A DNA stretch of 4,225 bases from a virus (taxonomy: Duplodnaviria; Heunggongvirae; Uroviricota; Caudoviricetes): the IMG/VR virus record IMGVR_UViG_2698536581_000011; one strand, given 5' to 3'. The notes beneath the pieces were generated by a model. It was not told the DNA's origin. It did not search any database and saw only the letters and a list, made by a program, of their open reading frames with translations. The number at the start of each line of letters is the position of its first letter. Position 1 is the first letter of the stretch. The position numbers were made by a program, and so were the translations under genes. Shown here piece after piece: positions 185-4,225 of this stretch.

Positions 185-367
185 CTACGAAATGAGAGGC
201 TCTTCGGGTTTTGTTCCGGCTGACTGGCTGGCGCTGATTTTTTCCGCCGCCGCGGCATCAATCTTTTTGCGTATATAGTTCCGGATAACCTTATACCCGC
301 CACTTACCAGATATAACGTGCACACCACCGTGCAGAAATACAATAAAATAAGCTGTACAAATCTCAT
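185..367 (-). CDS. Small single-pass membrane protein (60 aa), function unknown; holin-like topology possible
   Basis: ORF from the track. Strong SD GGGAGGG ending about 4 nt before the ATG at 367. Residues 5-24 are hydrophobic (QLILLYFCTVVCTLYLVSGG), followed by a basic stretch (RNYIRKK) and a hydrophilic Ala/Ser/Glu tail. Not recognisable as lambda S or S21 holin. Confidence 0.55.
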   Translation of the reverse strand: MRFVQLILLYFCTVVCTLYLVSGGYKVIRNYIRKKIDAAAAEKISASQSAGTKPEEPLIS

Positions 368-514: not shown

Positions 515-2452
515 TTACGGGTTATTCACTTCCACTGTTATACTTTCAATCAGCACCGGATATGTCGCACCGCTAGTGATATCGGTCACGCGCAATTTGT
601 CTGCCGTAAACGTGCCGACCGGTGACTGTGACAGCATGAACGGCGTCCCGTCCTTACCATCAATGACCGGCGTCACCTCAATACTGTTGTTACCGGCAAA
701 ACGGAAGCCCAGCGTATGCCATTCGTTATCAAATGCGCCGAATGACCCCAGCTTCGTGTTCTGACCAGCATTTCCCTTGTGGTACATCACATTAAGGTCT
801 GTGGCATCGCTCTGTACGTAAAACGACGCCAGCAGGTTATGACCGGCATTACCTTCCAGTGTGACGCCCTGAGGCAGTGAAGAAACCGGCCAGTACAGCG
901 CCAGTGCGTACTGATTAGCTGTCAGTGTGCCATCAACTTTAAAACGACAACTGATAAGCCCGCCCTTCTCCAGCAGGTCTGCGCCATTACCGGCATCATG
1001 CTGCATAAACCACGAGGAACTTCCTGTCTGTTTGGTCCACCTCAGCGCCTTACCTCCTGCAGCACCTGCATCATCAACTACCAATGCACGCCCTCCTTCA
1101 GCTCCCCATCCCTGCGGATTCAGTAAACCACCTGACTCTGTTGCACGGTAATAAAGCAGCGTTGTCACTGATTTCCCGTCCGTTGACGGTGTTGATGGTG
1201 TGTCCGGTGACGGCTTCTCATCCGGCGGCATCACAACCTGTTCCCCACCCACCAGTTCAGCCGTCCGTCCTGCATGGAGAAGAATCGCTGAGGCAAGACG
1301 GTCAGAAATAATCCCCCTGCGTGCCCATGAGCTGAAATGGCTCGCACGGTCTGCTGACGTCCAGTTTGCCGACGTCCGGGAGGCCGCACCGTAATATCCT
1401 GATGCCGGAATATCCGGGTCTTCTTCCGGTTTGTTCGTCGGGACATTTGCTCCGTTCTCATCGGTCATGAACGGCACAAAGTGAATATTCTTTTCCGTTT
1501 TGTTTTTGTAACTGCCGTACACCGTCTGGTAAGTGGATTCGCTCTTCTGCTTCCAGAAATAAGTTGTGTCTCCACATATCCAGGGAACACCGTCAGCAGA
1601 ACCACCAGCGCACTGTCCCACCATATCTGCAAGGTCCGTACGATATTGTTCCACTACTTCTGTAAAACGGGCTGTGTGATTTGCTGGCGTTCCGTCAAAG
1701 TCAAATTCCCCCTGCATCCACACCACGGCAAGCAGCACATTTTTCGGGTTCTTTGCCAGCGCGGCTTTTGTACGACCGATGAGATCCTTATACAGCGGCC
1801 TGCCCACACCCCAGCGGGTAGAACTCTCTGAGGCACCGGTCACGTCACTGTATGTTCCATCTGCCCCGGTGGTGAAAGCTGAACCACCACGGCAGCACGG
1901 AACCAGAAGAATACCCGCATTCGCCGGTATAAACGGCAGCAGCTTTTTGGCAATATGCAGCCCCTGCCCCACGGTTCCGTACTGACCTTTCGACAGGTCA
2001 GCTTTCGGATGGTTAAGACGGCTCATGTCCTGTACATCATGCAGACAGTGGTCTGCCGGAATAATGTCGTTATATTTACAGGGAGCGCCATCCGGCGTCA
2101 CTGTGCTGCGACGAGCCAGTTGCTTTATACGCGGGTCAGGACGGTCATATGTCTGCGGCAGAGGAAGCCCCTCACCGTAAGCCATGCCGTTCGACTGCCC
2201 GGCCAGTGGAATAACGTAGTAATAATCTGGCTCCGTAGTGACCACTCCCGGATAGCCACCATCCCCCGTGCCGGGCACAACCACTGGCGTGGTCACATCC
2301 CCCTCCGCGGCAATCGCCTGCATCAGGGTATAAGGGGTTATGGCCACCGGACTACCAAACGGCTGCCAGCCCTCTTTCAGTTTGTGTGTCAGCTTTTCCG
2401 CAAGATCTGACGGCGACGCCGCCCTGACAACATCATAATGTTTAATCGACAT
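515..2452 (-). CDS. nanS-p: Prophage-encoded sialate (9-O-acetyl-N-acetylneuraminate) O-acetylesterase NanS-p; DUF1737-type N-terminus + SGNH/SASA esterase domain + C-terminal beta-rich domain
   Basis: 645-aa ORF with SD GGGAGA 7 nt upstream of the ATG at 2452. N-terminal segment MSIKHYDVVRAASPSDLAEKL... is typical of the DUF1737-type start of NanS-p proteins. Esterase block carries the catalytic-serine motif GQSN (YVIPLAGQSNGMAYGEG). A Pro/Ser/Thr linker (PSPDTPSTPSTDGKS) precedes a ~220-aa C-terminal domain. Length and architecture match the NanS-p esterases that sit directly downstream of stxAB in Stx phages and in related stx-negative EHEC prophages. Confidence 0.92.
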   Translation of the reverse strand: MSIKHYDVVRAASPSDLAEKLTHKLKEGWQPFGSPVAITPYTLMQAIAAEGDVTTPVVVPGTGDGGYPGVVTTEPDYYYVIPLAGQSNGMAYGEGLPLPQTYDRPDPRIKQLARRSTVTPDGAPCKYNDIIPADHCLHDVQDMSRLNHPKADLSKGQYGTVGQGLHIAKKLLPFIPANAGILLVPCCRGGSAFTTGADGTYSDVTGASESSTRWGVGRPLYKDLIGRTKAALAKNPKNVLLAVVWMQGEFDFDGTPANHTARFTEVVEQYRTDLADMVGQCAGGSADGVPWICGDTTYFWKQKSESTYQTVYGSYKNKTEKNIHFVPFMTDENGANVPTNKPEEDPDIPASGYYGAASRTSANWTSADRASHFSSWARRGIISDRLASAILLHAGRTAELVGGEQVVMPPDEKPSPDTPSTPSTDGKSVTTLLYYRATESGGLLNPQGWGAEGGRALVVDDAGAAGGKALRWTKQTGSSSWFMQHDAGNGADLLEKGGLISCRFKVDGTLTANQYALALYWPVSSLPQGVTLEGNAGHNLLASFYVQSDATDLNVMYHKGNAGQNTKLGSFGAFDNEWHTLGFRFAGNNSIEVTPVIDGKDGTPFMLSQSPVGTFTADKLRVTDITSGATYPVLIESITVEVNNP

Positions 2453-2538
2453 CGAATTTCTCCCGTGTACAGGAACAGAGTTAAAAAGCCGGAACCGGAA
2501 TCAAATCACAGGATGACCATCTGCCAGTGGCTGGTCGT

Positions 2539-2567
2539 AAAAAAAAGGCCGCGCCATGCGCAGCCGG
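2539..2567 (-). terminator. Strong Rho-independent terminator on the minus strand, 87 nt upstream of nanS-p
   Basis: Minus-strand RNA reads CCGGCUGCGCAUGGCGCGGCC followed by UUUUUUUU. The stem is 7-8 bp and GC-rich (GGCUGCGC / GCGCGGCC with one G.U pair) with a 3-5 nt loop, followed immediately by an 8-U tract (plus-strand A-run 2539..2546). Confidence 0.7.
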
Positions 2568-2795
2568 AAATAAAGGGATAACGATGATAGTTTGAGAAAA
2601 ACAGAAATAACACTTTTGTGGCAAAGCATGGTGCCGGGTGCCTCCCGGTGAATTCAGTACCAGCACCTGAATCCGCGATTATCCCATATACCTGGTTGCT
2701 GATTGCCCCTCCGCACAGGGGGATTCACCATGCAGTAGTATTTTTAATAAACAGTAAACAAAAAAATCAAGCATTATGCAGGCTGTTTCTTTTTA

Positions 2796-2933
2796 TCACC
2801 GGCCACAGCAATACCACAATGCCGCAGACCAGCCCCCATCCGCCAGCACCGACATGATTCTGCTGGTGAAATCCACCATCACCACCAGAAACAGCAGGAG
2901 TGCAGCCACAGCCAGGCGCAGTTTTACCGTCAC
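2796..2933 (-). CDS. Small hydrophobic protein (45 aa, GTG start), translationally coupled to the upstream TerB-like frame
   Basis: GTG at 2933..2931 overlaps the TGA stop of the TerB-like frame in a GTGA arrangement. SD GGAGA lies 7 nt upstream. Translation (M)TVKLRLAVAALLLFLVVMVDFTSRIMSVLADGGWSAALWYCCGR has one clear transmembrane segment. Below the 60-aa cut-off of the ORF track. No family recognised. Confidence 0.35.
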   Translation of the reverse strand: MTVKLRLAVAALLLFLVVMVDFTSRIMSVLADGGWSAALWYCCGR

Positions 2934-3322
2934 AGGTGATTCTCCAGACGAAGCCCCAGAACACCGGCAATCTCTTCCAGCACCTTGCGCTCTTCCGGCT
3001 CAATTTCGCCGTCTGCCTCCGCAATGGCCACCGCCACATCCAGCACATCTTCCGCTTCACGCGTATCGCGTTTCACATCCTCGATCTCACGTAACGCCGC
3101 ACGACGACCAATTTTAAAGTTCGTATCCAGCTGACCGATAATGGTTGCGCTAATCGCATTAATTTCTGACGTAAACGCGGACAGCGCTGGCTGATTACGC
3201 AGTACCTGTTCGATCTTCGCTTTCTAGGAAGCCTCACATTCACCATTTGCACAGGCCACCAGGTATGCGGCGTTAATCACCGCCTGTGCCAGATCGCGTT
3301 TCTCAAACTTTCCTTTTTCCGG
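2930..3322 (-). pseudogene. TerB-like (tellurite-resistance TerB / DjlA-N-type) domain gene remnant: 5'-truncated, no start codon, one in-frame amber
   Basis: The minus-strand frame reads ...PEKGKFEKRDLAQAVINAAYLVACANGECEAS*KAKIEQVLRNQPALSAFTSEINAISATIIGQLDTNFKIGRRAALREIEDVKRDTREAEDVLDVAVAIAEADGEIEPEERKVLEEIAGVLGLRLENHL, ending at TGA 2932..2930. It contains two A-x-[AD/N]-G-E repeats typical of TerB-fold domains. The frame is closed by TAA directly upstream of codon P (3325..3323) with no ATG/GTG start, and TAG at 3226..3224 interrupts it. No other minus frame upstream encodes a TerB-like N-terminus. Confidence 0.5.
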
Positions 3323-3425
3323 TTAACGTGACACACCAATAACTCTTGTCGAAAAAGCCAGCAAGCTGAAAGACCGGTATTCACAACCACCAGCGCGTTT
3401 ACTGTACTGGCGTGATTTCAGTCAT

Positions 3426-3450
3426 AAAAAAACCCGCCTGGCGACGGGTG
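3426..3450 (-). terminator. Weak terminator candidate downstream of pR' (possible tR')
   Basis: Minus-strand RNA reads ACCCGUCGCCAGGCGGGU followed by UUUUUUU (plus-strand A-run 3426..3432). The stem is only about 5 bp (ACCCG/CGGGU) with an 8-nt loop. It lies about 40-65 nt downstream of the predicted pR' start. Confidence 0.35.
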
Positions 3451-3481
3451 TAAAAAATCTTCTAACGTCAGGCATAAAACG

Positions 3482-3524
3482 CCCATCGTTAGGGAAAATT
3501 TACCACAGATTCGGGAAAAATCAA
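3482..3524 (-). promoter_or_regulatory. Late promoter pR' with lambda-like core and promoter-proximal pause element (Q engagement site)
   Basis: On minus: -35 TTGATT (3524..3519), 16-nt spacer, extended -10 TGgTAAATT (-10 at 3502..3497), then 6 nt, then AACGATGGG (3490..3482). As I recall lambda pR' (TTGACT-N17-TAAATT-TGACTC-AACGATGGG), the -10 hexamer and the initial transcribed AACGATGGG are the same. The element sits immediately 3' of the Q stop codon (3532..3530), as in lambda. Confidence 0.6.
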
Positions 3525-3529
3525 CAAAG

Positions 3530-4225
3530 CTATCTGGTCACCTTTTTCAGTTGTTGTTCTGCCCATGCTTCTTCAATATCAAACTGCACCACCAGCGTAT
3601 CGTAAAAACGTTTAACTGTTTTTTTCCATGTATCAAGAGATATGGCATCGGTTACATTACATATGGCATTAAATGCCTCCGTTGAAGGTAATCTTTCATA
3701 GCCACGACCACCACAACGCTGGCAGTCTCTGATAACAGGCATACCACGTTTTACCGACTCTTCACGATGAATGGCAACACCGCGCCCACGACAATCTTTA
3801 CAGGCGGTGGAAACCTCCCCCTTCCCTCCACACTCCGGACAGGCAACTTTTACCACCTCCCTGACTTTTTTCCATTCCTCCCAGTAAGACGGATACACGC
3901 CTTTTGTGCACTTTGCCCACACTGGCGGCTTACCATCCGGATACTGGATCTTGTTTGTAAAAACCTCGCTTTCAATAAATTTTTTTCCGTGACAACAGGG
4001 GCACTGTTTTTTGCTCGCCGCGCTACGGGCATAATCTTCAAACGCATACGAAGCCATAATACGCATCACTGCCGGTTTTATTTCTGCCGGGAGTTTTCTT
4101 AACGCCGCCACGCGATCACACCGACTGAGTGCATATTCTGTCAGCAATTCTGTTGCCCGCTCTCTGTCATTCATACTAATGCCCATTTTCCCAAGGAATG
4201 AACCGCCCCGGAAATCCTGGAGACT
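3530..4225 (-). CDS. Q: Late-gene antitermination protein Q (lambda Q family); ORF track gives 218 aa from ATG 4186, but the frame is open to the window edge so the true start may lie beyond 4225
   Basis: C-terminal half aligns with lambda Q as I recall it (ours ...WKKTVKRFYDTLVVQ...KKVTR versus lambda ...WSRTVKPLYDALVVQ...NAVTR; ours IMASYAFEDYARSAAS versus lambda VLATFAYADYCRSAAT). CxxCxGxG zinc-binding motifs are present. In-window start candidates are ATG 4186 and ATG 4174. The 13 in-frame codons upstream (SLQDFRGGSFLGK) have no stop and resemble lambda Q residues preceding SQNDKQ (FCGKHELSQND versus FLGKMGISMND), which suggests an N-terminal extension outside the window. Confidence 0.86.
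   Translation of the reverse strand, partial: SLQDFRGGSFLGKMGISMNDRERATELLTEYALSRCDRVAALRKLPAEIKPAVMRIMASYAFEDYARSAASKKQCPCCHGKKFIESEVFTNKIQYPDGKPPVWAKCTKGVYPSYWEEWKKVREVVKVACPECGGKGEVSTACKDCRGRGVAIHREESVKRGMPVIRDCQRCGGRGYERLPSTEAFNAICNVTDAISLDTWKKTVKRFYDTLVVQFDIEEAWAEQQLKKVTR

Follow-up and report, generated by a model that had tools for sequence, protein, structure and literature searches.

The stxAB slot of a defective lambdoid prophage very probably holds an inactivated copy of the tciA-tciB gene pair

An inactivated tciA-tciB pair in an Escherichia coli prophage

We analyzed a 4,225-nt stretch of viral DNA (Caudoviricetes; IMG/VR record IMGVR_UViG_2698536581_000011), hereafter called the window, and in particular the 1,077-bp interval between its antiterminator gene Q and nanS-p. 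On the minus strand, the order is Q, the late promoter and terminator pR′/tR′, a TerB-like reading frame, a 45-aa open reading frame (ORF), an STnc100-type small RNA (sRNA), nanS-p and a DUF1378 gene (367..185). The interval very probably represents an inactivated tciA-tciB gene pair that lies within the late operon of a lambdoid, defective prophage from the O103:H2/O45:H2 lineage of E. coli, and we hold both its identity and its decay with this confidence. The identity follows from the Pfam matches to TerB and DUF3927, the PHROG matches to phrog_632 and phrog_1470, the RefSeq and phage annotations, the identity to TciA of phage P1 and a profile match to the TerB structure 2JXU. The decay follows from a recombination junction, an in-frame TAG, the substitution D39N, a frameshift in a run of five G residues and the interruption of Q. 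The locus is thus already known and annotated, and is doubly or triply inactivated; any working product from it is unlikely.

The reverse complement of the window differed at a single base (window position 4) from the chromosome of E. coli O103:H2 strain PV16-126. In other top-ranked records, including those of O103:H2, O45:H2 and O121 strains, the 1,077-bp interval was 99.9–100% identical. An earlier note, written from the letters of the window, had described a decayed TerB-like gene followed by a coupled, hydrophobic 45-aa ORF and had interpreted the two as a moron pair of the late operon, with the small ORF as the membrane partner of the TerB frame. That interpretation was borne out. The same note had called the pair partly inactivated; the loss of the TerB gene stands, but the decay proved to be greater, since the gene lacks 17 codons and its start, its partner is frameshifted and Q is cut.

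The TerB-like frame is a 5′-truncated tciA pseudogene

The features of the first gene are as follows.

2930..3311, minus strand: tciA pseudogene (TerB family), truncated at its 5′ end, with a TAG at 3226..3224 and the substitution D39N (ANGE)
3309..3311, minus strand: recombination junction joining the Q-pR′-tR′ module to tciA at about codon 18, placed by the ends of the Stx2_EH1910 and JLK-2012 matches
2930..3076, minus strand: 48-aa ORF with a GTG start, a C-terminal remnant of tciA from the ORF list, matching phrog_3920 over positions 1–48 of 48

When the TAG was read as E, the minus-strand frame 3322..2930 matched the Pfam TerB family (PF05099) with 43.4 bits against a cut-off of 24.4, compared with 60.2 bits for the intact TciA of phage JLK-2012. 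A profile of TciA relatives matched the TerB structure in PDB (2JXU, E = 1.3e-12), P1 TciA aligned with the window frame at 50% identity (tblastn, E = 4e-36), and RefSeq labels the frame as a pseudogene of a "tellurite resistance TerB family protein" with an internal stop. The missing start codon and the internal stop would also be expected if the resemblance to TerB were coincidental and the region were a fragment of an unrelated gene or a non-coding spacer. The agreement of the Pfam, PHROG, PDB-profile and P1 matches, together with the 93% DNA identity to the intact 143-aa tciA, refutes this explanation, whose probability we consider negligible. The conditions under which the earlier note would have withdrawn its TerB assignment were likewise decided for TerB.

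Three lesions were found in the frame. First, the match to the Stx2a phage Stx2_EH1910 stops at 3309, and window positions 3311..2902 are 93% identical to JLK-2012 tciA from its nt 51 onward. As a result of this junction, the copy in the window lacks the first 17 codons of tciA, its start codon and whatever lay upstream, the tRNAs included. Second, the TAG occupies the place of a conserved glutamate codon. The context TCC-TAG-AAA was also present in prophages of O157, O145 and other strains, including copies whose 5′ end is complete (L052 and L061), and a 5′-truncated form of tciA without the TAG was represented by 284 member sequences (P0101). These combinations indicate that tciA lesions have been shuffled between prophage copies, and recombination between such copies is the likely cause. 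The 5′ end of tciA is kept in 708 of 5,426 complete E. coli genomes. Third, of the two ADGE-type repeats described in the earlier note, the second is intact (EADGEIE) and the first reads ANGE, with N in place of D39. This D39 does not vary in alignment A1 and reaches at least 90% conservation in alignment A2.

The 48-aa remnant at the 3′ end of the pseudogene lies past the TAG, is frequently picked up by gene callers and has been called a 'TerB domain protein', its exact sequence being found on 64 contigs and a close variant on 802. The family phrog_3920 appears from these matches to have been built from fragments of tciA pseudogenes. Two plus-strand ORFs that lie antisense to the pair (2776..3117 and 2900..3094) were assumed to be incidental to the genes on the strand opposite them.

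The 45-aa ORF is a frameshifted allele of tciB

The second gene overlaps the first, and two features describe it.

2796..2933, minus strand: tciB (DUF3927) with a −1 frameshift; the first helix and the loop are in frame and the second helix is out of frame
2833..2837, minus strand: run of five G residues (G5), the site of the frameshift; six residues (G6) restore the 55-aa protein and seven (G7) give a 53-aa variant

The GTG start of tciB (2933..2931) overlaps the TGA of tciA (2932..2930) by 4 nt as GTGA, suggesting that the two genes would be translationally coupled, and a GGAG sequence lies 8 nt upstream of the GTG (2945..2942). The earlier note's description of a stop/start overlap with a good Shine-Dalgarno sequence is therefore accurate. 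The 45-aa product matched DUF3927 (PF13064) with 36.9 bits against a threshold of 25, and phrog_1470 with E = 3e-18; these matches were confined to positions 2–34 of 53 and 1–33 of 54, respectively. Adding one G to the G5 run produced a 55-aa protein that matched PF13064 over positions 2–50 with 60.5 bits. The conserved second hydrophobic segment of TciB (GLVCGIVVLLWP) sits in another frame in the window. When 1.84 billion representative proteins were searched, the homologues of the 45-aa ORF aligned in nearly all cases to residues 1–35 only, and the last 10 residues of the ORF had no homologues outside its own lineage. From these alignments, we infer that the 45-aa ORF is a lineage-specific by-product of a frameshift and not an intact gene. 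The small ORF is thus the hydrophobic partner of the TerB gene, as the earlier note had stated, but it is not intact, because the G5 frameshift removes its second segment.

Three lengths of the G-run were found. Complete E. coli records contained 259 exact matches to the in-frame G6 allele (55 aa) and 15 to the G5 allele of the window (45 aa). In a large collection of contigs, at least 999 carried the G6 allele, 217 the G5 allele and 36 the G7 allele (53 aa). RefSeq annotates the products of all three as ordinary DUF3927 proteins; the 45-aa ORF itself is labelled "DUF3927 family protein". Beside an intact tciA, the corresponding site reads GGGGTG in the DNA of JLK-2012, and ADGV (within ADGVLVCG) in the 80 related loci. 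The comparison of alleles indicates that a T-to-G change in a lineage with a dead tciA made the G6 run (ADGGLVCG), from which the window lost one G.

One alternative is a moron of two genes in partial decay, with a dead TerB gene and a small ORF that is intact and working. In favour of this view, the small ORF is open, has its GGAG 8 nt before the start, is a RefSeq protein and is carried in exact form by its 217 contigs. In contrast, it covers only the first 33–34 positions of the DUF3927 and phrog_1470 profiles, its last 10 residues are peculiar to its lineage, a full-length DUF3927 match is restored by one added G, its allele is rare among complete E. coli records in comparison with G6, and Q is disrupted in cis to it. 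We consider a working 45-aa protein quite improbable on this evidence.

The G-run could alternatively act as a phase-variation switch in which slippage among G5, G6 and G7 toggles the membrane protein. All three lengths do occur in nature, each with a different C-terminus. However, the tciB alleles follow lineages, with no variation within them, and the listed G5 records (the 15 exact matches) are strains of the O103:H2/O45:H2 type. The run arose by T-to-G only where tciA was already dead, copies next to an intact tciA carry GGGGTG, and other tciB alleles have no G-run. Runs of five to seven G residues are also short for efficient slippage. A switch of this kind is very hard to reconcile with the distribution of the alleles, and we give it little credence.

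The late promoter is preserved and Q is interrupted

The upstream module consists of the following features.

3530..4198, minus strand: C-terminal 222 codons of the Q antiterminator (PF03589, 129 bits)
4199..4225, minus strand: 27 nt of non-Q sequence at the edge of the window, without a match to the intact Q of L005; everything below 4198 matches
3482..3524, minus strand: late promoter pR′, with TTGATT, 16 nt, TAAATT (3502..3497), 6 nt and AACGAT-GGG (3490..3482)
3425..3449, minus strand: intrinsic terminator tR′ from the terminator scan, at which a pR′ transcript would stop after about 65 nt

An intact Q has 273 aa (L005 and L007), and the annotation of record L001, a single base different from the window, describes this Q as 'missing N-terminus'. 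In L001, an IS3-family transposase adjoins the site that corresponds to 4199, and Q is annotated as two fragments. We interpret positions 4199..4225 as the terminal part of an IS3-family insertion, with about 51 codons of Q lying beyond it; these 27 nt presumably resemble the terminal repeat of IS629. The insertion leaves the late operon without an antiterminator of its own.

The promoter has the same layout as pR′ of lambda, which likewise follows Q and reads TTGACT, 17 nt, TAAATT, 6 nt and AACGAT-GGG. By analogy with lambda pR′, AACGAT is presumably the sigma-70 pause element. A consensus promoter scan overlooked pR′, with 8 of 12 matching positions where 9 were required, and the promoter was found by direct comparison with lambda. 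The Q-pR′-tR′ module of Stx2_EH1910 was 99.3% identical to window positions 3600..3309. In lysogens, pR′ transcripts stop at tR′ and are read through only with Q (PMC7547250).

The RNA from 3492 to 3424 was predicted to fold into two hairpins (−25.6 kcal/mol, z = −4.6). At about 65 nt, this predicted RNA falls far short of the StxS precursor of Stx phages (258 nt); it could be an sRNA of the same kind as StxS. Rfam matches to anti-hemB (18.9 bits), which overlaps the pR′-tR′ hairpins, and to asX2 (25 bits) were far under their gathering scores and were treated as chance.

stxAB and tciAB are alternative cargo of one slot

Downstream of tciB, the slot is bordered by the following features.

2593..2759, minus strand: STnc100-type sRNA, the right-hand border of the slot (Rfam RF02076, 101.6 bits against a gathering score of 47)
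2547..2565, minus strand: intrinsic terminator-like hairpin before nanS-p, with 8 pairs, 7 of them G-C, and then a T run (terminator scan)
515..2452, minus strand: nanS-p (sialate O-acetylesterase), 645 aa, with DUF1737, SASA and DUF6645 domains

The earlier note had placed the pair in the stxAB slot of an Stx-phage-type late region, flanked by Q, pR′ and nanS-p and free of tRNA genes and stx-like ORFs. The flanks were as described, ARAGORN found no tRNA in the window and the ORF list of the window contained no stx-like frame. The STnc100-type sRNA, which borders the slot on the right, had been overlooked. STnc100 lies directly 3′ of stx1B, of stx2B and of stxB in a Shigella phage, and in the same way directly 3′ of tciB in JLK-2012 and in O157, O145 and IMG/VR loci. 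The next gene is nanS-p in the annotated tciB loci and in both Stx1-type phages, and iraM is annotated there in Stx2_EH1910. On the upstream side, tRNA-Met and tRNA-Arg, or tRNA-Met and two tRNA-Arg genes, stand just before the gene in 52 of 80 viral contigs with tciA relatives, and the Met/Arg/Arg set is also annotated upstream of stx2A in Stx2_EH1910 (L007).

These gene orders indicate a single slot upstream of nanS-p, with a tRNA cluster on one side and an STnc100-type sRNA on the other, that takes either stxAB or tciAB as its cargo. The window resembles Stx-converting phages in having a cargo slot after Q-pR′-tR′ and before STnc100 and nanS-p; it differs from them in that the cargo proteins are unrelated and in that it carries neither a toxin nor tRNAs. 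The gene orders speak neither for nor against the idea in the earlier note that the pair 'replaced or preceded' toxin cargo; the two are alternatives at one slot. A 2026 preprint describes TerB as a conserved neighbour of the PasA and PasC sRNAs, associates STnc100- and PasD-type sRNAs with an esterase gene and relates STnc100 to the PasD sRNAs.

Some further observations were made around the slot. A match to AgvB (RF02702), on the strand opposite to STnc100, comes immediately after that element in loci from O145 and Stx1-type phages (L006 3800..3861, L090 3055..3114 and L091 3189..3248), and no AgvB match was found at the corresponding position of the window. The annotation of L001 calls nanS-p a 'SASA family carbohydrate esterase'. 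On the opposite strand, window positions 2429..2572 (plus strand) correspond to a partial 'hypothetical protein' pseudogene in RefSeq (L001 6958..7101), which overlaps the terminator hairpin and the start of nanS-p and is probably spurious.

The pair is a named family with relatives in temperate and virulent phages

The earlier note had suggested that the intact pair might be an uncharacterized module worth tracing. Instead, it is already annotated in JLK-2012, phage 434, PHROGs, Pfam and RefSeq; the names tciA and tciB come from phage P1. In PHROGs, both families are filed under "moron", phrog_632 as "tellurite resistance" and phrog_1470 as "TciB-like". The order in P1 is tRNA-Asn, tRNA-Thr, tciA, tciB and tciC, and the three tci genes were non-essential in a CRISPR interference (CRISPRi) study (PMC10695390). 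P1 and the window have in common a TerB-family gene directly before a tightly coupled DUF3927 gene, and P1 also has tRNAs upstream, as does JLK-2012. The P1 copy lies outside a lambdoid late operon, and the window copy is a double pseudogene. P1 TciC had no match in the window at E values up to 10 (tblastn), and STnc100 follows tciB instead. The same two genes, tRNA-Asn and tRNA-Thr, are found just upstream of tciA in both P1 (L008 1415..1568) and JLK-2012 (L003 3549..3782), in contrast to the Met/Arg/Arg set of most E. coli prophage copies, which hints that tRNAs and tciAB may move as one block between unrelated phage types.

The closest intact relatives were those of JLK-2012 and PPyecE_EH1910. 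JLK-2012 has the order Q, three tRNAs, tciA (143 aa), tciB (54 aa) and yjhS (nanS-p). These phages share with the window the order of the slot, the GTGA junction and 92–93% DNA identity; they differ from it in having a full 143-aa TciA, a 54–55-aa TciB, upstream tRNAs and a different type of Q. The slot of phage 434 likewise contains a DUF3927/TciB gene ahead of an esterase gene, but there it follows a gene for an unrelated 247-aa membrane protein rather than a TerB gene. TciB is consequently able to occur without TciA.

Our scan of IMG/VR yielded only close relatives (at least 90% identity), and pairing in distant phages was checked on seven hand-picked records. A GTG overlap between the TerB and DUF3927 genes was present in about 70 of the 80 related loci. 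The junction is GTGA in the window, JLK-2012 and CharmingMan, and TAATG in P1. Coupled pairs were found in lambdoid phages, P1, a Klebsiella phage, an Actinobacillus phage and the virulent N4-like phages Pollock and FSL SP-058, and an annotated TciB-like gene begins 3 nt after the TerB gene in an Erwinia jumbo phage. Holin genes adjoin the pair in CharmingMan and in Actinobacillus pPE4, where the pair stands just before them. Vibrio phage K479 had no partner gene at its TerB gene.

Two natural single-ORF fusions of TerB and DUF3927 were also detected, namely P0065 (197 aa) and P0123 (170 aa). Either a frameshift at the overlap created them or they stem from sequencing errors; genuine fusions would point to a functional connection of the TerB protein with its partner. 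In Pseudomonas phage AF (L093 1132..1353), a TerB gene is joined by a GTGA overlap to a 73-aa ORF with one hydrophobic segment. By inspection, this ORF looks unlike the DUF3927 sequences. Coupling may be maintained even where one partner is exchanged for another.

Structure and proposed function of the intact pair

Structure tests were run on intact TciA relatives and not on the broken copy in the window. The AlphaFold model of an intact homologue (P0062) was all-helical, with a pLDDT of 86 and a pTM of 0.80. Its best PDB match in Foldseek was 2H5N (probability 1.0, TM 0.56–0.64, E = 0.02), which we take to be a member of the TerB family. Foldseek against PDB did not return the TerB structure 2JXU, which was matched through the sequence profile. 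The model of the P0065 fusion, made from a single sequence, had a pLDDT of 41 and a pTM of 0.26 and was unusable for evaluating contact between the two parts.

The intact tciB, for its part, encodes a DUF3927 protein that is about 55 aa long and has two hydrophobic segments. Between the segments, the motif DFTS-x-MS-x-LADG was nearly unchanged by eye in about eight sequences, whose sources ranged from lambdoid phages of E. coli to phages of Actinobacillus and of the N4-like type. TciA belongs to the same Pfam family as the TerB of terZABCDE (2JXU) and shares with it an all-helical domain and paired ADGE-type acidic motifs, the first of which reads ANGE in the window. It differs from that system in its surroundings, as no other ter gene is near and the neighbours are Q, tciB, STnc100 and nanS-p, and in its partner: the place of TerC is taken by TciB, with its roughly 55 aa and its two hydrophobic segments.

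From these comparisons, we propose that the intact pair would be transcribed late from pR′ under antitermination by Q. TciA would be a soluble, helical TerB-domain protein, possibly binding metal by analogy with TerB, and would probably act at the inner membrane together with a TciB hairpin. The pair would serve the lytic cycle, because it is kept by virulent phages and often stands beside lysis genes. As a tentative guess on its role, tciAB might guard the inner membrane or its potential in the infected cell against premature collapse, whether by pore-forming colicins, superinfecting phage or early firing of the holin. This guess echoes the colicin and phage resistance ascribed to ter operons; any link of tciAB itself to tellurite, colicins or phage is by homology to terB only (PMC4319500, PMC6799933, PMC9603915).

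Several points weigh against this account of the pair and of its decay in the window. Membrane association of TciA, metal binding and contact between TciA and TciB are all things that we infer, and the searchable literature yielded no experiment on TciA or TciB. The frameshifted tciB retains a good ribosome-binding site and could still give a 45-aa peptide with a single segment, and a Q of the same type from another prophage in the cell could antiterminate transcripts from pR′ of the window. Most loci with a dead tciA retain tciB in frame (at least 999 contigs), a retention that may reflect a use of tciB independent of tciA.

The last point can be extended to a reading in which TciB is an independent, widespread late-gene effector at the inner membrane, perhaps in lysis timing or superinfection, and TciA is an optional regulator. 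The in-frame 55-aa form in most prophages with a dead tciA, the TerB-free gene of phage 434 and the seemingly near-constant motif between the segments favour this reading, which we nevertheless regard as rather improbable. If it were true, the window would record the loss of TciB in one lineage of enterohaemorrhagic E. coli (EHEC).

A further alternative is that the intact pair benefits the host and not the lytic cycle, as a lysogenic-conversion or anti-phage defence module conferring resistance to tellurite, colicins or phages. The earlier note had likewise thought of phage defence. The homology to TerB and the moron slot that the pair shares with stx speak for such a role, and work cited in PMC4319500 and PMC6799933 reportedly ascribes resistance to phages, colicins and tellurite to ter clusters. 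However, in PADLOC-DB TciA gave only a weak partial match to PDC-S48 (E = 0.003, 14.6 bits) and TciB none, so that no meaningful match was obtained, and other ter genes are absent. In addition, the pair belongs to a Q-dependent late operon that is terminated at tR′ in lysogens (PMC7547250), and its conservation extends to N4-like and jumbo phages, whose virulent life cycle leaves no lysogen to be protected. Phage defence thus found no direct support, and a benefit to the host seems unlikely to us.

Discussion

The window itself is of little weight, as it holds a known, annotated and non-functional remnant in a defective prophage with a broken Q. The interchange of stxAB and tciAB within a bounded slot, however, would aid the reading of EHEC prophage mosaics. 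The alleles of tciB also expose an annotation artefact, since pipelines call its frameshifted forms of 45 and 53 aa ordinary proteins. The intact TerB and DUF3927 pair, judged from its conservation across temperate and virulent phages of several genera, would be a reasonable target for functional study.

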